Positions 3,773-59,361 of a stretch of DNA of 64,000 nucleotides are shown here, piece by piece. The first letter of the stretch is position 1. Each line of letters starts with the position of its first letter. Made by a program: the position numbers and the translations under genes. The notes under the pieces are model-generated. The model was not told the origin of the DNA. It searched no databases and worked only from the letters and a program-made list of their open reading frames with translations. This DNA is from Squalus acanthias (taxonomy: Eukaryota), in NCBI GenBank assembly GCA_030390025.1, contig CM059432.1, forward strand, positions 4,278,001-4,342,000, in the 5' to 3' direction.

Positions 3773-4538
3773 AATGACCAGATTATCTTTTCTGGTGATG
3801 TTGGTTGAGTGATAAATATTGGCCAGGAACACTGGGGAGAACTCCCCTGCTCTTCTTTGAATAGTGCCGTGGGATCTTTTATGAGGCCTAACCAGTGATT
3901 TATAAAGCTTTAGCTTAACTTCTTTGCTTTTGTGCTCTATGCCTCTACTTATAAATTGACATGTTGTTGGCGGAGTGGAAGTAGGAGGATAGGCAGAGAA
4001 CCTAGGAGGCAGGGGTCATAGGTCAGCACTCACAAGAGATCCAAGGGAAGACTCTGAACTAACAGCCATTCTTGCCTAACAAAAGGAAGACCGGCCAATT
4101 GAAAATCTAGTGTGGACCCTTGTTCACCCAATTGGCCGCCTGAATCAACTTTCAAGGCTGGCCTTTCTATGTTCGGTCCTGGCGAGTGCAGTCGATATCA
4201 TGAGGCCTTTGAGGTTCCTGACCAGAAAGTCTTCCCGCCCCCAGAGCATCTTTCAGATGCCAAGCCACCAGGGTCTACAGGCCCAGAAGATCATACAGAA
4301 AATAACTCCCTGGAGTTCTGCACAAGGAGGCTGTTGCTCAGCCCCAAAGCTCTTGAAGAGTTCGGTACCATCCTACAGGGAGATCTGCAAACTGCCTCAG
4401 CAATCAGGGCAGCTGTTTCTGTGGCTCAGGAAGTCAGTCCAGTGCTTGGCCACTGGGAAACGCAGCAGCCAATTTGCGCACAGCAAGCTCCCACAAACAG
4501 CAATGTCATAATGACCAGATAACAAATTATTAGTGTCC

Positions 4539-6609: not shown

Positions 6610-7282
6610 GGGCTGGATTTTGATACTGGGACGGGTTGGGGTCGTGTCATCCACTTTTCGTGTTATCTACCTGACTGCAATTGGATGTGGGAGATTGATG
6701 TGATTTTCACCTAATTGGGCAATTGAGTTCCAGCATGTGGGAACCCATGACCCAATTAGTGTTTTCAGTCTGAAAGTCGCCTCTGATGATGTCATCATTG
6801 CTGCTGCATTGAAGGTCTGCAAAGACTGCCTGGCCTTTGCTGTGAGAGGACCTGCAAAATGAGCAGCAGCAGTCCTAAGTCTGCTCCCAGATATTTTTAC
6901 ACCACCACTCCCAGATATGTCTCCTCTACATCCATCCATACACATAGCCATCCATATATGCATCCCCATAGCCAGCCAGCCAGCCAGCGTCAGCTATCCA
7001 AATGTGCTCCCGCCAGGTTTCACATTCGTGGTTCAGAACAGGCGTGCTTCACGTAGAAAAAGGGTTAAAATCACAAAGACCTTTCAAAATGGCATTATAG
7101 AGGCAATTTAGTGCTTGTTAAGGGCCTTAACAGCCTATCCCACCTCTTAGAGGCGGGACGGAGTCAGGACCAGCAGACACGATTTAATGTAAATTGGATG
7201 GAGGCGGACTTGTGCCCGCCCACCAGTTTTCGCAATTTTAACCCCCCACACACCTCCAAACGGGTCAATTAAAATCCAGCCC
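6610..7282. mobile_element. Non-autonomous Harbinger-type MITE (family D)
   Basis: Perfect 12-bp TIR GGGCTGGATTTT/AAAATCCAGCCC; 3-bp TSD TTT; same ends at 58517 and 63963. Confidence 0.8.
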
Positions 7283-24832: not shown

Positions 24833-25593
24833 GGGGTAAAAATTGAGTCGCGCCCCATTTGGGGCGCTAACCTCGCCGGGGCGCGACTTTTAGCGCCCCG
24901 AAAAAATTAGCAGCCCCGCGCCGGAACTTCAGTGGTTGCGCCCCAAGAGGGAAGCGGGGCGCAACTGGAAGCAGCCCGCATCCCTCTTGGGGCGCTGCGA
25001 GTGAATATCCTGGCGCTACGTGCCGCAGCGCCACGCGCTGCGGCACGTCGCGCCGCGGTATTGCAGGCCTTCCTCCCCTTCTTAAAGGGGAGGGACCCTG
25101 CGCAGCGCGAACCGGGGCCCAGCTGGGCCCCCAGGGATCGGGAGTGCCGGCAAAAGAGCCCGGCACTCAAGAGAAGTGCCGGGCTCTTGGAGCGCAGCCG
25201 GCACTTCACGGTGGGGGGGCTTCACGGGGGCCGGGGGCAGGTGCTGGCAGGCGGCCAGCAACAAAAATGGCCGCCTGCCACCTCCGCTTTAAATATCGCC
25301 GCCCCGGCCGCACGTACGCCTCCCTGAACCCGTCGGACATAGCGTCTGGCGGTAAATCAGGGGGCGCGACTGAAGATCACGGCCGGGGCGCGAGCGGGGT
25401 GCTGCGCACGGCGATGACGTCATCGCCGGCGGCGCAGCGCCACAGGGCGCTACCGGCTGCCGCCGCCGCTAACCTCCCACTAAATTTTTCGGGAGGCGTG
25501 GGCGGCGCTGCGCCCGGGTGTTAGCTGCTTTACGCCCCATTAGCGCCCTCTTAAGGCGCTAACGGGAGGCGCAAGCAGCTGAATTTTTCCCCC
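24833..25593 (-). mobile_element. Non-autonomous MITE related to the autonomous Harbinger (family A)
   Basis: TIR GGGGTAAAAATT/AATTTTTCCCCC; TSD AAG (24830-24832, 25594-25596); right ~65 bp nearly identical to reverse complement of 39883-39950. Confidence 0.9.
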
Positions 25594-26309: not shown

Positions 26310-26763
26310 AGTGTCAGCCAGTGGCTCCACGGGCAGCACCCTCGCCTATGAGTCAGAAGGTTGTGGGTTCAAGTCCTACTCCAGAAACTTGAGCACAAAA
26401 CTCCAGGCCGACACTCCAGTGCGGTGCTGAGGGAGAGCTGCACTGTCGGAGGTGCCGTCTTTTGGATGAGATGTTAAACCGAGGCCCCGTCTGCTCTCTC
26501 AGGTTGACGAAAAACGGCACTATTTCGAAGAAGAGCAGGGGAGTTCTCCTCGGTGTGCTGGCCAATATTTATCCCTCGATCAACATCACTAAAAACAGAT
26601 TATCTGGTCATTATCGCATGGGAGCTTGCTGTGCGCAAATTGGCTGCTGTGTTTCCTACATTACAACAGTGATTACACTTCAAAAAGTACTTCATTGGCT
26701 GTAAAACGCTTTGGGACATCCTGAGGTTGTGAAAGGCGCTATAGAAATGCAAGTCTTTCTTTC
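26310..26763 (+). mobile_element. Deu-domain SINE, near full length
   Basis: B box GGTTCAAGTCC, body, tail. Confidence 0.87.
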
Positions 26764-26793
26764 CGAGGAAACGCGGCAGCCTATTTGCACACA

Positions 26794-27266
26794 GTGCCAA
26801 CACTCCCCACAGTTCAGACAACGCACAGCGCCAACACTCCCCACAGTTCAGACAACGCACAGCGCCAACACTCCCCACAGTTCAGACAACGCACAGCGCC
26901 AACACTCCCCACAGTTCAGACAACGCACAGCGCCAACACTCTCCACAGTTCAGACAACGCACAGCGCTAACACTCCCCACAGTTCAGACAATGCATAGCG
27001 CCAACACTCCCCACAGTTCAGACAACGCACAGCGCCAACACTCCCCACAGTTCAGACAACGCACAGCACCAACACTCCCCACAGTTCAGACAACGCACAG
27101 CGCCAACACTCCCCACAGTTCAGACAACGCACAGCGCCAACACTCCCCACAGTTCAGACAACGCACGGCGCCAACACTCCCCACAGTTCAGACAACGCAC
27201 AGCGCCAACACTCCCACAGTTCAGACAATGTACAGCACTAACATTCGAGTTCAGACAATGCACAGA
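26794..27266 (+). repeat. 34-bp minisatellite array (~14 units) inside a minus-strand SINE (26766-27400)
   Basis: Unit GCCAACACTCCCCACAGTTCAGACAACGCACAGC. Confidence 0.95.
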
Positions 27267-27654
27267 AATTAGATAATGAACAGATAATTATTTTCAGTTA
27301 TGTTGATTGAGGGATAAATATTGGCCCCAGGACACCGGGGAGAACTCCCCTGCTCTTCTTCAAAATAGTGCCATGGGATCTTTTGCATCCACCCGAGAGG
27401 GATGTTGGTGCTGGGAAGCTGAACACTTTCCATTTTGGAGACACAAGCCTTGATTTTCTGGCAGGTTTAGCACGTTCGTCAGAAATTGCTCTTTCTACCA
27501 TTTTAGCAGAAATATTATCGGTTTATTTTAATGGAGTTGAAATGGCAGAGAGAGGAATTTCAAATGAACATGTTGAGTGCGCATTTGCCAGTATTCCATG
27601 GTGTAATTTCAGGGCTCTAATGTCAGCATCGAGTGCTCCAAGGTCAGATATAAA

Positions 27655-28610: not shown

Positions 28611-28712
28611 GTACGTGCTTTATATGGCCATCTGTGTGATAGCATTAGCGCAGCATTGGCTGATCTACTGTTAGCACTGCACCTTACCACCTCCAATATT
28701 AGAACTTGGGGG

Positions 28713-30165
28713 CTGTTAGCGCTGTGCATTGTCTGAACTGTGGGGAGTGTTAGCACTGTGCGTTGTCTGAACTGTGGGAGTGTTGGCGCTGTGCGTTGTC
28801 TGAACTGTGGGGAGTGTTGGCGCTGTGCATTGTCTGAACTGTGGGGAGTGTTAGCGCTGTGCATTGTCTGAACTGTGGGAGTGTTGGTGCTGTGCGGTGT
28901 CTGAACTGTGGGGAGTGTTAGCGCTGTGCGTTGTCTGAACTGTGGGAGTGTTGGCGCTGTGCGTTGTCGGAACTGTGGGAGTGTTGGTGCTGTGCGTTGT
29001 CTGAACTGTGGGAGTGTTGGCGCTGTGTGTTATCTGAACTGTGGGGAGTGTTAGCGCTGTGCGTTGTCTGAACTGTGGGGAGTGTTGGCGCTGTACATTG
29101 TCTGAACTGTGGGGAGTGTTGGCGCTGTGCGTTGTCTGAACTGTGGGAGTGTTGGCGCTGTGCGTTGTCGGAACTGTGGGAGTGTTGGTGCTGTGCGTTG
29201 TCTGAACTGTGGGAGTGTTGGCGCTGTGTGTTATCTGAACTGTGGGGAGTGTTAGCGCTGTGCGTTGTCTGAACTGTGGGGAGTGTTGGCGCTGTACATT
29301 GTCTGAACTGTGGGAGTGTTGGCGCTGTGTGTTATCTGAACTGTGGGAGTGTTGGCGCTGTACATTGTCTGAACTGTGGGGAGTGTTGGCGCGGTGCGTT
29401 GTCTGAACTGTGGGGAGTGTTGGCGCTGTGCGTTGTCTGAACTGTGGGGAGTGTTGGCGCTGTGCGTTGTCTGAACTGTGGGAGTGTTGGCGCTGTACAT
29501 TGTCTGAACTGCGGGGAGTGTTGGCGCTGTGCGTTGTCTGAACTGTGGGGAGTGTTAGCGCTGTGCGTTGTCTGAACTGTGGGAGTGTTGGTGCTGTGCG
29601 TTGTCTGAACTGTGGGAGTGTTGGCGCTGTGCGTTGTCTGAACTGTGGGAGTGTTGGCGCTGTGCGTTGTCTGAACTGTGGGAGTGTTGGCGCTGTGCGT
29701 TGTCTGAACTGTGGGGAGTGTTAGCACTGTGCGTTGTCTGAACTGTGTGAGTGTTAGCGCTGTGCGTTGTCTGAACTGTGGGGAGTGTTGGCGCTGTGCG
29801 TTGTCTGAACTGTGGGAGTGTTGGCGCTGTGCGTTGTCTGAACTGTGGGAGTGTTGGCGCTGTGCGTTGTCTGAACTGTGGGAGTGTTGGCGCTGTGCGT
29901 TGTCTGAACTGTGGGGAGTGTTAGCACTGTGCGTTGTCTGAACTGTGTGAGTGTTAGCGCTGTGCGTTGTCTGAACTGTGGGGAGTGTTGGCGCTGTGCG
30001 TTGTCTGAACTGTGGGAGTGTTGGCGCTGTGCGTTGTCTGAACTGTGGGAGTGTTGGCGCTGTGCGTTGTCTGAACTGTGGGAGTGTTGGCGCTGTGCGT
30101 TGTCTGAACTGTGGGGAGTGTTATCATGTGCGATGCTGAAACTGGGCAGTGTTAGCGCCCTGTGT
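28713..30165 (-). repeat. 33/34-bp minisatellite array (~43 units), inverted relative to 26794-27266
   Basis: Unit GCTGTGCGTTGTCTGAACTGTGGG(G)AGTGTTGGC; degenerate edges. Confidence 0.95.
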
Positions 30166-30689
30166 TCTGAAAGAAAGCTCTATTAGAAACACAGAGTTAC
30201 CCTTTACATTAGGAAGCCAGTGACCACACTATGGTGTAGAATCAAGGCACTATAATAGCTATTTCTCACCTCTTACGAAGAGTCTATTAACAGATTCTGA
30301 GGTTTTACATGTGTGACTGTGGGTTGTTAATGGTGATAGCACGGAAGAGTACAAGTTCACCTTCCAGCACTGGCGTGTACTGCAGCTTATAAAAAAATAA
30401 CTTGTTTATAAAAAAGGCTGCTTGTGTCAGGGATTTAGTAGCATAGAGATTAACGAGGAAAACTCAGTTCTTGTTGTCTTGCTCTCAAATAAATTAATTA
30501 GTACTGCAGGTACAAAGAACAACTGCAAATTCTGGTAATCTGAAACAAAAACTGGCAAAGCAGAGTACAGCACGCAGCTTCTAAAAGAAGTAATGGGCTG
30601 TGTAACTTATCAAAACTAGCAGAGTCAGCATCCAGAAGGTCCTTTGTCGGACTGAATGAAACAAAGAAGGATGAACAAGTAAAAGAAAA

Positions 30690-38900: not shown

Positions 38901-39449
38901 CGTACAAGGCTACGGACCAAGTGCTGGAAAATGGGATTAGAATAGACAGGGCTTGATGGCCGGCGCGGACACGATGGGCCGAAGGGCCTCTTTCTGTGCT
39001 GTATAACTCTATAACTCTATGAACTAACTTGTATTAATATCAAAACCGTTCATGATTTTGAACACCTCTATCAAATCTCCCCTTAACCTTCGCTACTCTA
39101 AGGAGAACAATCCCAGATTCTCCAGTCTCTCCACATAACTGAAATCCCTCATCCCTGGCACCATTCTAGTAAATCTCCTCTGCACCCTCTCCACGACCTT
39201 GACATCCTTCCTAATGTGTGGTGCCCAGAATTGGGCACAATACTCCGGCTGGGGTCTAACCAGTGTTTTATAAAGGTTTAGCCTAACTTCCTTGCTTTTG
39301 TACTCTCTGCCTCTATTGATAAAGCCATGGACCTGCTTTTTGAGCAGCTTTCTCAGCTTGTCCTGCCATCTTCAAAGATTTGTGTCCGTACACCCCAAGG
39401 TCTCTCAGTCCCTGCACCCCCTTTAAAATTGTACCATTTAGTTCATATT
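35952..39449 (-). mobile_element. CR1 fragment split into 35952-36270 and 39038-39449 by later insertions
   Basis: Both pieces are contiguous CR1 ORF2 3' sequence on the minus strand (compare 63370-63962). Confidence 0.75.
36280..39022 (+). mobile_element. 5'-truncated CR1 LINE, most of ORF2 (APE + RT) with stops/frameshift
   Basis: ORF 36462-37949 (YRPP, GDFN, SDH, NYRPV, QHGF, DFSKAFDKV), FADD at ~38101, ORF 38275-38940; (ATAACTCT)n tail. Confidence 0.95.
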
Positions 39450-40190
39450 GGCCCGAAAATTAAACCTAATACGCGAGAGTACGCACTGTGTACTCTCACG
39501 TATTAGATCCCGAATTGCCGGTTTCCTGCATGCACTGCGCATGCGCGGGAAACCGGCACTTCGTGAATTGAAAAGCGGGCGGTTCCTAAGTGAACCACGT
39601 GCGCGCTACAGGCTGTACGCACGCAGTGCACTTAGTTATTTTTTCAGCTTTGAACGCGCAGGTAAGTGGTGAAGATTTTACACATAAAGAAAGCAGGCGT
39701 AGGACAGCCCTTTTAACAAGGTAAGTAGTTAATTAAGTGTTATTTTAAATTTTTTTCAACAGGTTTATCTTTTTTAGAGACTTTAAAGAAAGGTAAGTTT
39801 ATTTTTATAACTTTTAAAAAGATTTTACATTTTTTCAAAAATTTAATTTTTTGTTTAAAGTGGTTAATTTATTTAACTATACGGGGTAAAAATTCAGTTG
39901 GTTGCGCCTCCCGTTAGCGCCTTAAGAGGGCGCTAATGGGGCGCAAAGCCGCTAACGCCCGGGCGCAGCGATGTTTGCGCCGCTCGGGAACTTAACTAGA
40001 GATTGTGCGGCGGCGCTAAAACTTACCGCTGCGACCACCTGCGCGCGCAGATTGTGACGTCATTCCATGGTGCAACGCCCTTGTGGCGCCCCGGAGCGGA
40101 AATTGAGTGGCGCCCCCTGCCTTACCGCCTGGCGCATCCAACGACCGGAAGACTGGAACGCTATCAATCGCTGTGGGGCTGGGGGGGACG

Positions 40191-40200
40191 CTATTTAAAG
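40191..40200 (+). promoter_or_regulatory. Candidate TATA-like box of the transposase gene
   Basis: CTATTTAAAG ~200 bp upstream of ATG; retained (reverse) in derivative at ~58188-58197. Confidence 0.4.
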
Positions 40201-40393
40201 GGGGCCTCTTCCTGTCTTTTTCTGTGGTCGACATTTTTGCACCACTCGTTCTGAGAGAGAGAGAGAGATTCGGAGAGAGAGAAAGAGAGACTTCTGCATT
40301 GACTCAACGCTTTGTGAGGTAGTTTTGCCTATTGATCCTAACTTCGCTAATACTTTAGTTGCTGTCCTTCATTACTTTGCTTGCAAAGAGACT

Positions 40394-41554
40394 ATGGGGG
40401 CTGCACTGATTGGGGGCGTCGTCCTGCTCCAGCTGAATCGGAGGATACAGAGACGCAGAGAGAGAGTGGCAATGATGGCCAGACGGAGGAGGGCCAACAG
40501 GCGTATGTACAGGAGAGCTTACCCTCCCAGGGTATATCGTGAACAGCTCTCCTACATTCATATGTCTGAGGAGCTGTGTTTGCGAAGGCTGCGATTCAGC
40601 AAGGAGGTGGTCACTGAGCTCTGCCACCTGCTGCAGCCAGATCTGCAGCCTCAACTGAGGTCCAGGACGTCTCTGTCGGTGGCAGTGAAGGTCACAGTGG
40701 CTCTCAACTTTTACGCTACTGGCTCATTTCAAGCTGCTGCTGGGGACCTCGCCAATATCTCCCAGTTCGCGGTGCATTGCTGCATCCGGCAGGTCACAAA
40801 TGCCCTCTTTAAAAGGAGACGAGAGTTCATCTCTTTCCCCATGACCCCAGACAAGCAGCGTGACCGCGCTCTGGGCTTTGCGAGGGTAGCGGGCTTCCCC
40901 ATGGTGCAGGGCGCCATTGACTGCACGCATGTGGCTTTGCGTGCTCCGCATGAGAATGCCGAGGAATTCCGGAACAGAAAGGGGTTCCATTCCTTGAATG
41001 TTCAGTTGGTCTGTGACCACAGACAGCTGATACTCGCTGTCAATGCCCACTATCCTGGCAGCTGCCACGATGCTTTTATCCTGCGCCAGACTACTGTGGC
41101 AGAACTTTTCGAGGCACCGCATCAGCCAGTTGGTTGGCTTCTCGGGGACAAGGGGTATGCATTGAGCACCTGGCTGATGACACCGCTCCGTACGCCCAAC
41201 ACCCCTGCTGAGCTGCGGTACAATGAGAGCCATCAAGCTACCAGGAACATAATTGAGCGCACAATCGGCGTGCTGAAGCAACGGTTCCGCTGTCTCGATC
41301 ATTCTGGAGGAGCCCTGCAGTACTCGCCTGAGCGAGTATCCAACTTCGTAGTCGTGTGCTGCATGTTGCATAACATGGCAATCCTCAGGACCCAGCCAAT
41401 GCCACCAGGCCTTGGAGCACCACCAGAGGAGGAGGAGGAAGAGGAGGAAGAGGACGAGGAGGATGATCATCAGCAGCACCAAGGCGGGAGGGCGGCCCAC
41501 AATGGTCAAACTGCAAGGGCCGTCCGTCAACGGCTAATAGCAAGCCGCTTCTAG
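40394..41554 (+). CDS. PIF/Harbinger DDE transposase (HARBI1-like, 386 aa from first ATG)
   Basis: Uninterrupted ORF with GAIDCTH, NRKGFHSLNVQLVCD, PGSCHDA, LLGDKGY, YNESH..R..IERTIGVLKQRFRCL; acidic C-terminal tract. Confidence 0.95.
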   Translation: MGAALIGGVVLLQLNRRIQRRRERVAMMARRRRANRRMYRRAYPPRVYREQLSYIHMSEELCLRRLRFSKEVVTELCHLLQPDLQPQLRSRTSLSVAVKVTVALNFYATGSFQAAAGDLANISQFAVHCCIRQVTNALFKRRREFISFPMTPDKQRDRALGFARVAGFPMVQGAIDCTHVALRAPHENAEEFRNRKGFHSLNVQLVCDHRQLILAVNAHYPGSCHDAFILRQTTVAELFEAPHQPVGWLLGDKGYALSTWLMTPLRTPNTPAELRYNESHQATRNIIERTIGVLKQRFRCLDHSGGALQYSPERVSNFVVVCCMLHNMAILRTQPMPPGLGAPPEEEEEEEEEDEEDDHQQHQGGRAAHNGQTARAVRQRLIASRF

Positions 41555-41866
41555 GGCCCCTGCTGTGGAAATGGCTTCTGCCATTGCTAACAACATCAAT
41601 GAACCCAGCACGCAACCCCTAAGCCAGCCAAGGCACCAATAATTCCAACCACCAACCATGTATATTTTGAATACAGAAACTTATTTATTTTACAAACTCT
41701 GTGTGTGTCAATTCCTCATGACAAACTCATAGAAATAAACACAAAAAAACAGTCAATAACATAACTGGTTCTCACAACCTGGAGATAATGTCCAAAACAC
41801 TAAACAAAAGTTGGACCATGAACCTCGACCTTTAATAAAAAAATGACCAGCATTTTGTCACACCTC

Positions 41867-43686
41867 CTACTTTTTGCCCTTCGAGGGTGATCTCCTTCCC
41901 TTGCGCACTTCCCCCCTTCTAACCCTACTGCTCCTCCGTAATGGGACCTCAGTGGCTGCAGCAAGGCTGGTGGAAGGCTGCTGATCGTCAGACCCTGACA
42001 CGGCAGATGCCCCTGAAGGACGGCCTCGACCAGTTCTGGGCCTGGAGGGCCCGGCTGCAGACTGCACCAACTCTGCATGGGCGGCAGCAGTCTGTCCTAC
42101 AGGCGGTGGCAAGTGCAGTGGAGAAGTGACAGTGTTGGCAGCAGGAATGCTGTCATCGTGAGAGAGGACAGCAACTCCCTGCTCGCCCAACACACTGGCA
42201 CTCCCACGGGGCAGCACTTCAGCATCCGGAGCAATCAGCTGGAGAACAGATTGCTGGCCTGCTGCGGCGCGGTGACAGCCCCAGGGACATGTGCACGAAC
42301 CATCGAGGTTGGCAGCAGTCTGTGCTCGCGTGGCCTCAATCTGAGTCTGTATGAGAGCAGTCAGAGATGGGATCACGGCAGCCAGTGACTGAATTGCAGC
42401 ACTAAGCGTTAGTGTGGCATCCGCCTGTGCTACAGCGAAGTGCTCCACACTCCTTGCCAGTGACTCAATGCATTCGGGCACCCTTCCCACTGCACCCATG
42501 AGCTCAGTGTGCATGCCCACCGCCTGGGTGTTCATTTCTGCGATCAGCCGCTCCTCCTCTGCATCCATTGCAGTAGGAGTGTCTGGCATACTCTCCCTCT
42601 GGGGAGAAGGCCCCCGTTCTTCCCTACCCCCATGGCGTTGCTGCAGCCCGCTGGGTCCTGGAGCTTCACCCTCATCAGACCCTTCCCCCCTGCTCCCCTC
42701 CAGGGAAGGCGTGTTCCCAGTGTGGGCATGGGCTTCCTCGGGAGAGGGTGGCACTGATGCTCCGGCTTCCTCTTCCTCCTCAGCTGCAGCATCACTCCCA
42801 GTGGCAGCTTCAGGGCCCGTCTCCTCAGCTGGTGAATCACCATCTGAAAGCAGGGAGGTACAAGAGTGGCTTTAGCGTGAGGACAGGGTGGCAGTAAGGG
42901 AGGAATAAGTGCAGCGAGTTAGCAAGTTGGATTGAAAGTGTCAAAGGCTGGTGTTGTGAGGGACAAGTGGAAGGACAGAGGACAAAAAGGTGATGACCTT
43001 ACCATTGCTGTCCACAACGGGGTCGGCGTCTCCAGTGGCGACGGGACCGATCACCCGGCTTGCCACAATCCTGTGGACGCGCTCCTCAAGATCGCTGAGG
43101 GGTTGCAGCTGAGGCCGCCCTCCACCTGTCCGTTGCTGCTGTCTCCGATTATGCGCCAGCTTGGCCTGTAAGAAAAAGGACAGCATCTGAGTAAATATAC
43201 AGCCATGGTCTTGCCTGATGTGCCTCCCAGAGGTGAATAGCCCTTACTGTATGCAGCCATGGTCTTGCCTGATGTGCCTCCCATAGGTGAATAGCCCTTA
43301 CTGTATGCAAAGTGTGGAATGTGTGTGTGTGTTTCATGAAAGGGCCATAGGTGTTGGATGAGTGTTGTGCATTGGGGTTTTAAGACCCTCTGGCCATAGA
43401 GTGAGTTTGAGATGGAGGGATGGAGAGGTATTGAGAAAAAGCCACTCACCCTGACGACCCGAGTGAGGTCGTTGAACTTTTTGCGGCATTGAGTATGGGT
43501 CCTGGGCACCATGCTCCTGGAGGAGACGCTCTGAGCCACCTCCCTCCACACTCTTCTGAACTCGCGTGGCAAAGGCCTCCTGCCCCTCTCAGGGAAGAGT
43601 ATACATCTTCTGCGCTCCACCGCGCCAACCAGAGCATCCAAGGCCCGCTCGGTGAAGCGATGAGCTCGTTCTCTCACCCTCTCCAT
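41867..43686 (-). CDS. Harbinger Myb/SANT(trihelix)-like DNA-binding protein, 3 exons (43686-43450, 43165-43003, 42843-41867), 458 aa
   Basis: Exon1 RFTERALDALV..W..VA..V..RT..QCRKKFNDL; donors GTGAGT/GTAAGG; acceptors TTTTTCTTACAG/CTGCTTTCAG; 237+163+977 nt = 459 codons including stop. Confidence 0.88.
43200..43307. repeat. 54-bp tandem duplication in intron 1 of the Myb/SANT gene
   Basis: CAGCCATGGTCTTGCC..CTTACTGTATG twice, one mismatch. Confidence 0.9.
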
Positions 43687-44414
43687 CCTTGGCAGCAAAA
43701 TGGATTCACAGGTCTCTCCAGGCCGAGATTCAAGGCTGCAATGAGCAGGGTGTGGCTGGGGAGCAAGTTGGCCCCCCCCGCTTTAAGAAGTGGCCGGCGC
43801 CAGTGTGTCTGTGTTCCCTCGCTAACTGGCAGCAGCTGCGCTGCGCTCGCGCGCTGAGTTAGCGCCTCACTGCTCGGCCTTTGCGCCTTAAGACAGGTGT
43901 GCAGCGCCTGATTTAGCGCTCCACTCACCTCCCAGGGCGGTAAAAGTGAAGTTTCCAGTCAGTGCCGATAATTAGCGCCAGGCGGTAATATTTGCGTCCA
44001 GACGATATTTGCGCCACAAATGTGGCGCGACCTAATTTTTCCCCCTACTTATTTTATTAATGTGATGGCTTTTTTTTTAAATTTAATTGAGGTTTAGCTG
44101 TTCTTTTGGGGGGGTGTAGTATTCATAGCTTTGACAGGTCTTCCTGTCAAAACTATGAATGAAAGATGGTGTGCTGCCATTGGCTCTAACTGAATCACGT
44201 GATCCCAGAGCTCGCACGAACTAATTGCGTCTCTGGGTCACGCAAGCACTGCACAGTTCCAAGAGAGAGAGCCTTTCAAACTAAAGTTCGTGTGGGCCCG
44301 TAGCAAAAAGGTAGGCGCGGAGTGCGATATCGCGGAGAATCCTTACCCCCGCGGGAACCCTCACTGTTTAATTTCTGGGCCATTACCTCTCGATGTATCT
44401 AACCATCATAGGAC

Positions 44415-44960
44415 CATAGAAACATAGAAAGTTAGAAGATAGGAGCAGGAGTAGGCCATTCAGCCCCTCGAGCCTTTTCCGCCATTTAATGAGATCATGG
44501 CTGATCATCCAAATTCAGAACCCTGTCCTGCTTTCTCCCCATATCCCTTGATCCCTTTAGCCTTAAGAACTATATCTAACTCCTTCTTGAATATATTTAA
44601 TGAATTGGCCTCAACTGCCTTGTGTGGTAGAGAATTCCACAGGTTCACCACTCTCTGGGTGAAGAAATTCCTCCTCATCTCAGTCCTAAATGGCTTACCC
44701 CTTATCCTTTGACTGTGACCCCTGGTTCTGGACTCCCCCACCATCGGGAACATCCTTCCTGCATCTAGTCTGTCTGGTCCTGTTAGAATTTTATATTGGT
44801 ACAGGAGTTCCTCTAGGAACAGGAGGAGGCCATTCAGCCCCTCGAGCCCCATCCGCCATTCAATTAGATCCTGTCTGATCTGTATCTTACTCTACTTTCC
44901 CACCTTGGTTCTGCGTCACTCAATACCCTTGCCCTGACAAAAATCTCAGTTTTGAAATTT
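44415..44960 (-). mobile_element. Two CR1 3' fragments (44415-44795, 44812-44960)
   Basis: ORF 44505-44852 and two tails. Confidence 0.87.
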
Positions 44961-46704: not shown

Positions 46705-47455
46705 GGGCCGGATATTCCGATCCCTATGGATGTGTACGCGCCGTGTACCCACCCGTAGGGACATCGGAAATGCCGGTTTCAGGCATGCACAGCGCATGCG
46801 CTGAAAACTGGCATTTCCGATCTATCAAGAATGCTCTTGACAGATTGGACGCCTGCCCTGGAGAAGGGCCTCTGCGGGCGGATAGTTCCGCTTTCTGGAG
46901 AGCCTCCGCCCGCAGAAAACCCTTAGAATTCTTACGCCTGGTAAAAGGCATAAGACGTAAGGCCTGCTTTTACCAGGATAAGAGTTGAAAAAAAGTTTTT
47001 AAAAAGTTTTTTCAGTCATTTATCATTTAAAAATAGGCAAGTTTATTTTTAGCCCCATAAAAATTTTAATTATGTTTTTCAAAAAATTAAAGTTTTGTTT
47101 AAAGTATTTAATTTATTGTCATTTCAACTAATTTTAAAAATGTGATTTTTTTTTAAATGTATTTAATGTTTTGAAGTGTTTTTGGGGTGATCTCCATTCA
47201 TATATTTGACAGGTCTATCTGTCAAGTGTATGAAGGGCGATTCCCTTCTCCTATTGGCTCCCCATGGCCCACGTGATCCCAGGGACGCTTGTGAACTGCC
47301 TGCGCCCCTGGGATACGTGGGCCCTGCGCACTTGGAGTTCGAGAGGCCCAGCATCGGAACTTTACGCACCTCGGGAGCCCTCAGGTAAGTGCATAGATTT
47401 TTTCCAGATCGGAGGCCTCCGCACGCAGGAAGCCTCCGATTGGAAAATATGGCCC
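46705..47455 (+). mobile_element. Family B MITE copy
   Basis: Imperfect TIR GGGCCGGATATTCCGATC/GATTGGAAAATATGGCCC; same internal hairpins as 39450 copy; flanks AAT/ATT. Confidence 0.78.
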
Positions 47456-48035: not shown

Positions 48036-48800
48036 GGCCTGGATTTTGCAGTCGGCGGCGAAGTGACAGCGCTCGCCGTTGATCTTGAACAAAGCTGTCC
48101 ACAAAGATCTAGCGATCTCTGCAGCGTCGATTTCACTTTCCCGATGTTAATTTCATTCTGGCTCCATGTATAGCGGATCTCCAGCGTCCAGCAACAGTGA
48201 TGTCATCAAGCAGGCTAAGCAGTCAATCACATTGAAGAATTCTCACAGGCAGCAAACCAGGAAGTAAAAAGCACTGATTATCCTTCACTTTTTAATCATT
48301 TTACGGAGAGCAAAATAAAGATTTGGACATACACATGGGATTAAGGTAGAAGTTGAAATATAAACTACCTTTAAAAAAAATGATTTTTATTATTTTAAAA
48401 AATCTATGGGAATTTATATCACAATGGAGATATTTGACATTGCACAAATATAAAATTAGTTTTTTCCAGGCCAGAGAGGTTGTTCAGCAGTAATGATGAC
48501 TTAGTACGCCATTAAAAACCAAGTTAAACCTCATTCAACAAGGCTTAACATTTTTTTTTAAGAACGATTAGACCGTAAAAAGTGAAAGTTCATGTCAATC
48601 CAAGTGATTTATAAGATTTCCATCTGCGAGGACTTGAACAGCGCACCCTGTGGAGGAGCGGGAAACCTCTGACAGCAACTTCCGGATTTCCGCGTTTAAC
48701 TGCGCATGTGCGGACGCCAGAAGTAGCTGTCAGTTTCACACTTGTAATGATGGCGAACACTGACAGTTTTGCTGTCATTACAACTGCAAAAATCCGGGCC
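48036..48800. mobile_element. Harbinger-type MITE (family E)
   Basis: TIR GGCCTGGATTTTGCAGT/ACTGCAAAAATCCGGGCC; flanks ATT/CTT. Confidence 0.7.
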
Positions 48801-55012: not shown

Positions 55013-55770
55013 GGTCCAGAAATTCGGGTTGGAGGATTCCCGCGGGCGCAAGCCCCCTGACCTGCACTTACCTAGCGCGCCTGCCGTTGTGCTGTGGGCC
55101 CGCGTGGGATTCCGATCCTGGGCCTCCTCCAGCTGCCGGCGCGCAGTGCTCGCGTATCCCAGGGGCGAAGCTAGTTCGCAGCGTCCCCTGGGATCACGTG
55201 GGCCATGGGGAGCCAATCAGAGCAGGGAATCTCCATTCATAGATTTGACAGGAAGACCTGTCAAATCTATGAATAGAGATCGGCCCCAAAACCTCACTAA
55301 AAGTTCAAATATTTTTTTTAAATCATTTTTAAAATAACTATAAATTACATAAATTAACTAATTTAAACAAAAATTTTAATTTTTGAAAAAATTTATTAAA
55401 GTTTTTAACGGGGCTAAAAATAAACTTACCTTTCTTTAAAGTATTTAAAAATGATAAACCTGTGGAAAAAATGTTTTCAATTTTACTTAATTCACCTCTT
55501 ACCTTGTTAAAGGCAGGCCTTGCGCCTGCTTATTCCCCGCGCAGCTGCCAGGGACTTGCCCTCACAGAGAAACCTGAAAAAAAGCGGAAGTTCCAGGTCT
55601 ACACGCTGCCTCTCCGGCGCACGCGTTTGACCCGTGAACCCCTTCCTTCAAGGGAATGGAAGTTCCGGTTTCCAGCGCATGCGCAGTGCATGCGCGAATC
55701 CGGCACTTTCGTTGGCCTTACGGTGAGTACACAGCGTGTACTCACCCGTGGGGACCCGAATTTCTGGGCC
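55013..55770 (-). mobile_element. Family B MITE copy, opposite orientation
   Basis: TIR GGTCCAGAAATTCGGGT/ACCCGAATTTCTGGGCC 16/17; hairpin 55235-55274 matches 44121-44160. Confidence 0.82.
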
Positions 55771-57615: not shown

Positions 57616-58505
57616 GGGGGAGAAATTCAGTATCGCCCCATTTGGGGCGCAATTATCGGCCGGGCGCAAAGATTAGCGCCTGCCGCTAATTATCGCCTCC
57701 GACTGCAAACTTGACTTTTATCGCTCCTGGAGGTGATTGCAGCGCTAAATCAGGCGCTTCACACCTGTCTTAAGGCGCAAAGGCCGAGGAGCGAGGCGCT
57801 ACCTCAGAGCGCTGGCGAAGCTCATGTGATGTCAGTCAGCAATGGAACACACACACAATGGCGCGGGCCAGTTCTTAAAGGGGAGGGTTGATCTTGCTTT
57901 CCATCCACATCCTCATTGCAGCCTTGAATCTCGGCCTGGAGAGACCTGCACATCAAATCTGCTGGAAAGAACAATGGAGAGTACCAGGCAAAGAGCTCAG
58001 AGTGCAGCCCCCACAGTCTCTTCTAAATCGATACAAGGAAGGGCAAATCAAAATGAACCTGCAAAGTGCTGCTCAGTACCCAAAACTCCTTCACACAGCG
58101 TTGAATCTCTCCAGAAGTCTCTCTCTCTCTCTCTCAGAAAGTGTGGTTCAAAAATGTCACCAACAATAAAAGGCAGGAAGCAGTCGCCTTTAAATAGCGC
58201 TCCCCCAGTCCCTTCCTGACTGCAAAACGCTCCCCTCAACCTGTCGTTGCTAGCGGCAGGCGGTAAGGCAGGGGGAGCCAGTCAATATCCGCTCCGGGGC
58301 GATACCGGGGCGTTGCGCACTCGACTGACGTCACGATCTGCCGGCGCAGGAGATTGTGGCGGTAGTGTTTAGCGCCGCCGCAAAATGTCTAGTTAATTTC
58401 GCGAGCGGCGCAAACATCGCCGCGCCCGGGCGCTAGATGATTTGCGCCCCATTAGTGCCCTCTTAAGGCGCTAACGGGAGGCGCAACCAACTGAATTTTT
58501 CCCCC
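57616..58505 (-). mobile_element. Internally deleted relative of the autonomous Harbinger (family A)
   Basis: TIR GGGGGAGAAATT/AATTTTTCCCCC; flanks CCA/ACA; left part matches revcomp 43665-44045 including Myb start (MESTRQRA vs MERVRERA); right part matches revcomp 39883-40300. Confidence 0.88.
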
Positions 58506-58516
58506 ACAGAGTCATA

Positions 58517-59361
58517 GGGCTGGATTTTGATACTGGGGATGTGATGGAGGCGGGACTCCCACTTTTTGGGTTGTAGACCCGCCTCCATCGACTTGTGGCC
58601 AACCCACGGTATTTTCCCTTGATTGACCTTGTTGAGCCCGCCCAGCGAGCTCAGCAGGCCAATTAAGGGCCACCCGGCAACAGGTGACGTCACAGATTGA
58701 CATTTCATCTGTCAAGAGCTTTTGACAGATGAAATATCAGCGTTTGACAGCTCTGTGAAGCTGTCAAACACTGCCAATTTGTCTTCTAACTTGAGTCCTT
58801 CCTCTCAGGCTGAGTTAGAAATCATTCCAGCACAGAAAACAGAGGCTGCAGTTTTTGACAGCACCACGGCCTTTCTGCTTTCTGTGCCGGTGAGATATCT
58901 GACTCCCGAGAACTGAAGGGCTGACACCTGCAGGAGGAAGTTAAGGTAAGTAAAACTTTTTCCCACACTTTGCACTTACCTTACACACTTACCTCTGCAC
59001 ACATACACCCATCACTCACCTGCCCACCGGACATATCGACCCCTCCAACCCCTGCAGACCCACGGTCCGCCTCGCTAACTTGGCGTGGTTGGGACCTGTC
59101 GGGAAGCCCACATTTCAGCTTTCAAAATAGGAAATAGGCAAAAACCTGCCTGTTAACTACCTGTTAACAGGCAGTTAATTGTCACTAATCCCCTTCCCGC
59201 CTCGGGGAGGCGGGTCCCAGCACAGGTCGGGTACCCGCCTCCAGCGAAACTGGCATGGAGGCGGGTTGGGGGCGGGATGGGGTCGGGACCCCCGAATCTG
59301 CAACTTTAACCCCCCTACACGCCTCCAAACCCGCCTCCACGGGTCAATGAAAATCCAGCCC
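58517..59361. mobile_element. Family D MITE
   Basis: Perfect TIR GGGCTGGATTTT/AAAATCCAGCCC; TSD ATA. Confidence 0.83.

Follow-up and report, generated by a model that had tools for sequence, protein, structure and literature searches.

A full-length two-gene Harbinger transposon with open reading frames, nested in an older element of the Squalus acanthias genome

A 64,000-nucleotide stretch of Squalus acanthias DNA (GenBank assembly GCA_030390025.1, contig CM059432.1, positions 4,278,001 to 4,342,000; here, the window) contains a full-length, two-gene PIF/Harbinger transposon. It is an unusually well-preserved representative of an elasmobranch Harbinger family with many copies, and adds a new member to a kind of element already known. 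An earlier reading of the letters alone (the sequence-only reading) had called it an apparently intact two-gene PIF/Harbinger transposon, and this was borne out on every point tested. We consider it probable that this full-length copy, with both frames open and likely competent proteins, belongs to an abundant family and has long been resident in an older element, its mobility being no more than possible. Judged from their sequences, the encoded proteins are likely still able to support cut-and-paste transposition. The element is a complete shark Harbinger with both genes open and ready for testing. Should its two natural proteins prove able to mobilise DNA, they would make a Harbinger tool of vertebrate origin, semi-specific in its target and usable without reconstruction; lacking such proof, the element is an ordinary well-preserved transposon copy. 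The element and its parts, including its terminal inverted repeats (TIRs) and the duplications of the target site (TSDs), are as follows.

39883..44045, forward strand: autonomous-type Harbinger element, whole, 4,163 bp, bounded by empty-site joints
39880..39882, no strand: left TSD, TAC, exact copy of the right TSD
44046..44048, no strand: right TSD, TAC, exact copy of the left TSD
39883..39894, forward strand: left TIR, 12 bp, GGGG start, 11/12 identical to the right TIR
44034..44045, reverse strand: right TIR, 11/12 identical to the left TIR
39895..40190, no strand: left subterminal region, GC- and CpG-rich, with repeated GCGCC/GGCGC motifs
40192..40199, forward strand: TATA-like box, ~200 nt 5′ of the transposase ATG, no ATG intervening, retained in both non-autonomous relatives
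40394..41554, forward strand: DDE transposase, single exon, 386 aa, stop-free, PF13359 (E = 6.8e-40)
41555..41866, no strand: convergent 3′ region common to both genes, AATAAA at 41734 and 41834 (forward) and 41684 (reverse)
41867..42843, reverse strand: Myb/SANT exon 3, 977 nt, through the stop codon
43003..43165, reverse strand: Myb/SANT exon 2, 163 nt
43202..43309, no strand: 54-bp tandem duplication, 53/54 identical, within Myb intron 1
43450..43686, reverse strand: Myb/SANT exon 1, 237 nt, tri-helix domain PF13873 (E = 1.3e-9)
43790..44033, no strand: right subterminal region, GC-rich, with repeated GCGCC motifs
39450..44381, no strand: older non-autonomous host element with TIRs starting GG, ~765 bp minus the insert, TSD ATT

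The TIRs agree at 11/12 nt and at 13/16 nt, with agreement decaying beyond, and together with the exact TAC/TAC duplication they are the TIRs and 3-bp TSD of the PIF/Harbinger superfamily in the broad sense, as the sequence-only reading had described. PIF/Harbinger TIRs are usually 25-50 bp (PMC9179366), making the 12-bp TIR here shorter, and a reported range of 5-1042 bp takes it in (PMC4482050). When the element and one TAC are removed, the flanks are collinear with paralogous host elements at 46705-47455 and 55013-55770, and contigs from public sequencing runs span the empty site with a 4166-nt skip (3 contigs in run X1, 11 in X3 and 1 in X12). Because the empty paralogs and the contig joints both match the flanks, the Harbinger element is nested in an older non-autonomous TIR element, a nesting that the sequence-only reading had missed, and the TAC is a genuine 3-bp duplication with paralogous empty sites. 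Insertion polymorphism was ruled out as the source of these joints, whose depth runs in the hundreds; they derive from paralogous host copies and so carry no information on the alleles of this locus. The GCGCC/GGCGC motifs of the left subterminal region are likely candidate binding sites for the Myb protein. At 39658-39800 the host element has an acceptor-like site and three donor-like motifs, AGGTAAGT, most of which its two paralogs retain.

The transposase matches PF13359 and, aligned with its best 120 homologs, carries the majority residue in all 90 of the 90 columns that at least 80% of rows conserve (rank 1 of 121 rows, median 0.88), making it a DDE transposase open reading frame (ORF) of the Harbinger type in the PIF/Harbinger superfamily. 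The acidic motifs noted from the letters alone are present as D176, D252 and E288, which we take to be the catalytic triad, and also D226. A search found 426 relatives; the best 120 come mostly from sharks and rays, are at most 67% identical, and include proteins labelled "putative nuclease HARBI1". A tree of 33 rows (the window protein and 32 of the 120 homologs, midpoint-rooted and built from database homologs, with no true HARBI1 or Nuwa reference) placed the transposase beside sawshark proteins in a 25-row clade (support 100/99); every named member of that clade is a cartilaginous fish. The AlphaFold model had a pLDDT of 86, and the top Foldseek rows were DDE transposases and integrases, all weak (E ≥ 0.012), with no match at E ≤ 0.001; a sequence search of the PDB found no relative, and an identical transposase was absent from a collection of 15 billion proteins. 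A weak tblastn remnant of the N-terminal part of a Harbinger-like transposase (38%, E = 2e-4) lies elsewhere in the window, at 4313-4462.

The second gene, convergent to the transposase, is modelled in three exons, separated by two GT-AG introns (284 and 159 nt) whose splicing is predicted, and gives a stop-free protein of 458 aa. Residues 5-455 of this protein align to the sawshark protein P0123 at 37% identity across both splice junctions, so that the partner gene described earlier as spliceable holds up on paper, and the PF13873 domain with this full-length alignment identifies it as the Myb/SANT second ORF of the PIF/Harbinger superfamily. Both genes begin at the first ATG, and the polyadenylation signals that had been reported are in place on both strands of the common 3′ region. 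An exhaustive search with Myb exon 3 found 11 homologs, a word-index search with the same exon gave no match, and a word-index search with exon 1 gave one protein. The frame of exon 3 is mostly shared with the homologs; a compensated frameshift at an odd stretch (residues 313-325) was considered and is unsupported, the homologs being in-frame there and an ungapped X8 contig running across it, and one homolog, P0125, changes frame near the C-terminal part. Complex prediction with transposase residues 35-340 and a Myb exon-3 segment, run without alignments, gave a score of 0.00, which weighs neither for nor against a complex. Two database gene models, P0007 and P0132, fuse Myb and transposase parts and P0129 has three Myb repeats; these are likely annotation read-through across adjacent transposon copies.

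A mechanism for this pair can be carried over from the zebrafish element Harbinger3_DR (summarised in PMC9179366 and PMC9392472). There, the Myb-like partner attaches to the TIR region and to the N-terminus of the transposase, which it imports into the nucleus, and transposition needs both proteins. By that model, transcription of the two convergent genes would proceed from the GC-rich ends; the Myb/SANT protein made from the spliced transcript would bind those ends and the transposase N-terminus and bring the transposase into the nucleus; and excision of the element and its reinsertion with a 3-bp staggered cut would fall to the DDE transposase. The short elements may be cross-mobilised as well. 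For the shark element, transcription, splicing, complex formation, catalysis and cross-mobilisation are inferences.

Abundance and divergence were estimated from the contigs of four public runs (X1, X3, X8 and X12) aligned to 39200-44700 at 92% likeness. Two DNA runs of organism A placed 60,360 and 100,629 contigs on this 5.5-kb stretch, giving a crude floor of 720-870 copy-equivalents once the median summed depth was divided by 31 and then by 25, the depth assumed for a single copy. Summed contig depth is not itself a count of copies; on this crude estimate, the family is very abundant, at roughly 10^3 copies. Compared with seven of the eight listed X8 contigs, the element has 34 differences in 3,560 nt (0.96%), leaving aside a 194-nt piece with 12 differences that was treated as another subfamily, and compared with all eight listed X12 contigs it has 20 differences in 1,816 nt (1.1%). 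The highest share of sampled words in any DNA run was 0.88, the ~12% of words missing corresponding to ~16 sites (0.4%) found in no contig. The element thus stands ~0.4-1% from the family majority. With the pedigree mutation rate of the epaulette shark (7e-10 per site per generation, 95% confidence interval 1.4-14.1e-10; PMC10587355), this likely corresponds to ~6-14 million generations, with a range of 3-69 million, an estimate valid only if the changes postdate the insertion, since a minor active lineage could give the same pattern. The young family proposed from the letters alone therefore stands in percent terms, at ~1% from the majority, and likely does not in generations at this rate. 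The retained CpGs that had been offered as a further sign of youth are ordinary: the observed/expected ratio is 0.58 for the element vs 0.50 for the window, with 0.59 and 0.42 in the coding regions, and it is high only at the element ends (1.15 and 0.80), as it is in the older host element, whose left half is higher still at 1.47. CpG retention was accordingly rejected as evidence of youth.

We consider it unlikely that this copy, or the sub-lineage immediately around it, acts today as a master element that transposes in the germ line. Such activity would fit the perfect TSD, the perfect conservation of transposase residues, the intact frames, splice sites, TATA-like box and polyadenylation signals, and a family uniform enough to yield X8 contigs of 830-878 nt at ~5x depth. 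A young sub-lineage also fits because three of the four listed transposase coding differences are silent. Against it, the ~12% of sampled words (~16 sites) are absent even from the best DNA run, and nine sites that differ from at least 90% of the X1 and X3 depth and from X8 were found among the 40 of 168 differences listed (32 of the 40 in the element): the transposase has one, which is silent, Myb has four replacements and one silent change, and three are non-coding; two are of the CpG-decay type. These four Myb replacements, two of CpG-decay type, the age of the adjacent short relatives (77-82% identity) and the lack of spliced RNA in X12, a run whose RNA status is guessed, all speak against present activity. 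An open copy in a family of ~10^3 also requires no present activity, because by our rough neutral-decay estimate 7-32% of copies at 0.4-1% divergence would retain both frames (taking stops as 4.5% of substitutions and indels at one tenth of the substitution rate). A bolder version, to which we give only a small chance, is a still-mobile natural master copy needing no reconstruction, from a cartilaginous-fish subgroup that would read a Harbinger3-like palindromic flank, ignore the central triplet and drive MITEs (miniature inverted-repeat transposable elements) making up about one tenth of the window; if true, it would be a MITE-driving master copy in a lineage thought nearly free of DNA transposons.

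The same neutral-decay figure, with its assumed rates, is consistent with a functionally dead copy whose frames are open by chance and whose Myb replacements or silenced ends are disabling, and the family majority indeed differs from this copy at R34, in the tri-helix exon of Myb, and at three residues of exon 3. No conserved transposase column is altered, however, and the Myb changes fall in a protein that is only 37% identical even to its best homolog. We consider a dead copy quite improbable.

Several results weigh against the preferred reading of a long-resident copy with likely competent proteins in an abundant family. The Myb protein lacks an internal stretch of 20-50 aa near residue 270 relative to four homologs, although an ungapped 878-nt X8 contig covers the place and suggests that the shortening is a family trait. 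In X12, the guessed RNA run, the Myb intron contigs are unspliced, with no splice joint among the 15 listed of 183; one contig spans all of Myb intron 2 with zero differences and another passes the exon-1 donor unspliced, observations compatible with transcription or with its absence. The copy-number estimate depends on summed contig depth, the figures on the nine sites depend on the 40 of 168 differences listed, and the age relies on a mutation rate that comes from a different shark species and has a tenfold confidence interval. Finally, the differences from the majority could mark a young active sub-lineage instead of decay.

The window also contains eight non-coding elements of 670-890 bp whose TIRs start GG (GG-TIR elements), with 3-bp TSDs and Harbinger3-like flanks, several of them CpG-rich, six of the eight being tied to Harbinger by TIR and TSD form alone. 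They total ~6.2 kb of 64 kb, or ~10% of the window, and two are relatives of the Harbinger element itself.

6610-7282, 24833-25593, 39450-44381, 46705-47455, 48036-48800, 55013-55770, 57616-58505 and 58517-59361: GG-TIR elements
57616..58505, reverse strand: non-autonomous relative of 890 bp, identity 408/500 aligned nt to the element's left end and 313/380 to its right end, TSD matching at 2/3
24833..25593, reverse strand: non-autonomous relative, 761 bp, exact TSD, 191/247 identical at the left end and 50/65 at the other end

These two relatives lie within 15 kb of the element, one on each side, inside the 20 kb given by the sequence-only reading, and are 77-82% identical to the element ends; because of this low identity they are older side branches, and the idea that the neighbouring short elements are young offspring, together with their use as evidence of youth, was rejected. 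The 761-bp relative sits in the 8-nt tail repeat of a CR1-type long interspersed nuclear element. The elements at 57616-58505 and 58517-59361 are of different kinds and stand 11 bp apart with overlapping target flanks.

Target choice was examined in nine GG-TIR elements, chosen from terminus scans by TIR match. Exact 3-bp duplications are present in five of the nine and are of mixed sequence, none being TWA, CWG or TNA; TWA is seen at none of the nine. The flanks scored 63 against the published Harbinger3_DR palindrome, whereas 20,000 random draws from the window averaged 30.8 and reached 50 at most, and A at -4 or T at +4 from the TSD occupies 16 of 18 places, in a test picked after three sites had been seen. 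For these nine sites in one window, the data support a target choice that depends on the flanks (A at -4, T at +4, Harbinger3_DR-like) above the central triplet. With a variable TSD and conserved flanks, TSD-based subgroup rules fail to cover these elements, and the Harbinger element, taken with the eight short GG-TIR elements (~6.2 of 64 kb), hints at under-annotation of Harbinger-type DNA in this lineage.

Subgroups were defined by TSD in Han et al. 2015 (PMC4482050), and the element, with Nuwa-like GGG ends, is outside every published TSD subgroup rule. The TWA duplication of PIF/Harbinger in the sense of Han et al. 2015 is here TAC. NuwaI and NuwaII of the PHIS superfamily share with the shark element a GGG/GG TIR start, DDE and Myb/SANT ORFs and animal hosts, and have mean sizes of 4.5-4.7 kb vs ~4.2 kb (PMC4482050). 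The GGG start and both ORFs are those of NuwaI, whereas the NuwaI TSD is CWG and the NuwaII target is C|TNA|G, neither of which matches A|TAC|T here, and the main results of the same paper list no cartilaginous fish among the hosts. Zebrafish Harbinger3_DR likewise has DDE transposase and Myb/SANT genes, short TIRs, a 3-bp TSD and flanks like the palindrome AAACACCWGGTCTTT, which was published in PMC3016246. Its TSD is CWG, whereas that of the shark element is TAC and varies among the nine GG-TIR elements of the window; it is also a reconstructed element (Sinzelle et al. 2008, as cited in PMC3016246, PMC9179366 and PMC9392472), whereas the shark element is a natural open copy, the two being likened by description and not by sequence. 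The closest proteins, sawshark P0001 and P0002 ("putative nuclease HARBI1"), are 67% and 61% identical to the transposase, and P0123 is 37% identical over the whole Myb protein; at the DNA level, all of these represent different families from the shark element.

Among cartilaginous fishes, the elephant shark was reported to have no Harbinger and other species were proposed for testing (Etchegaray et al. 2022, PMC9179366), while in the available text PIF-Harbinger is listed as a repeat class only for the whale shark (PMC8455134) and for the grey reef shark, in which DNA transposons make up 1.58% (PMC12498223). A literature search found no account of an autonomous shark Harbinger among the results listed, with Repbase, Dfam and subscription papers outside the search.

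Harbinger-Snek of sea kraits is also a two-gene vertebrate Harbinger with a high-copy expansion and derived non-autonomous forms, and it was acquired by horizontal transfer (PMC8437027). Cross-species comparison had been proposed as a check for such transfer, and transfer is unsupported for the shark transposase, which lies in a cartilaginous-fish clade. A recent horizontal invader common to unrelated species would be in keeping with the 18 of 23 listed runs, under seven coded organism labels and one unlabelled, that carry at least half of 415 sampled words. Two runs of one study, however, gave organism E word shares of 0.61 and 0.00, and X8, from organism C, has a flat depth of ~5 together with flanking CR1, as trace amounts of DNA from a shark genome rich in repeats would produce. 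Both findings are explained by traces of a very abundant repeat, and the word-share table was rejected as evidence of transfer, X8 being the one holder other than organism A that was examined by contigs. The closest proteins among the best 120 come from elasmobranchs, share at most 67% identity and fall in a deep cartilaginous-fish clade. We regard an invasion of this kind as very improbable; organism B (three runs in two studies, share 0.58-0.68) may be a true relative, and runs X19 and X20 (shares 0.05-0.06) do not enter the argument.

A domesticated host gene pair like HARBI1 and NAIF1, suggested by the "putative nuclease HARBI1" labels of homologs, is refuted by the empty sites and multi-copy status and is almost certainly wrong. 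HARBI1 and NAIF1 belong to the same protein superfamilies as the element's proteins and are jawed-vertebrate host genes (PMC9392472), single-copy and free of TIRs or TSD, whereas the shark pair lies between TIRs and a TSD, with paralogous empty sites, nested in a repeat and at very high copy number. Some relatives may differ in this respect: within the same transposase clade, short-branch groups spanning shark and ray orders (P0004/P0005, P0011/P0012, P0016/P0020, P0025/P0028/P0067 and P0042/P0043) suggest, from their sequences, several domesticated Harbinger transposase genes in elasmobranchs. Apart from these elements, the window contains tandem arrays of 33-34-bp units at 26688-27299 and 28697-30180.

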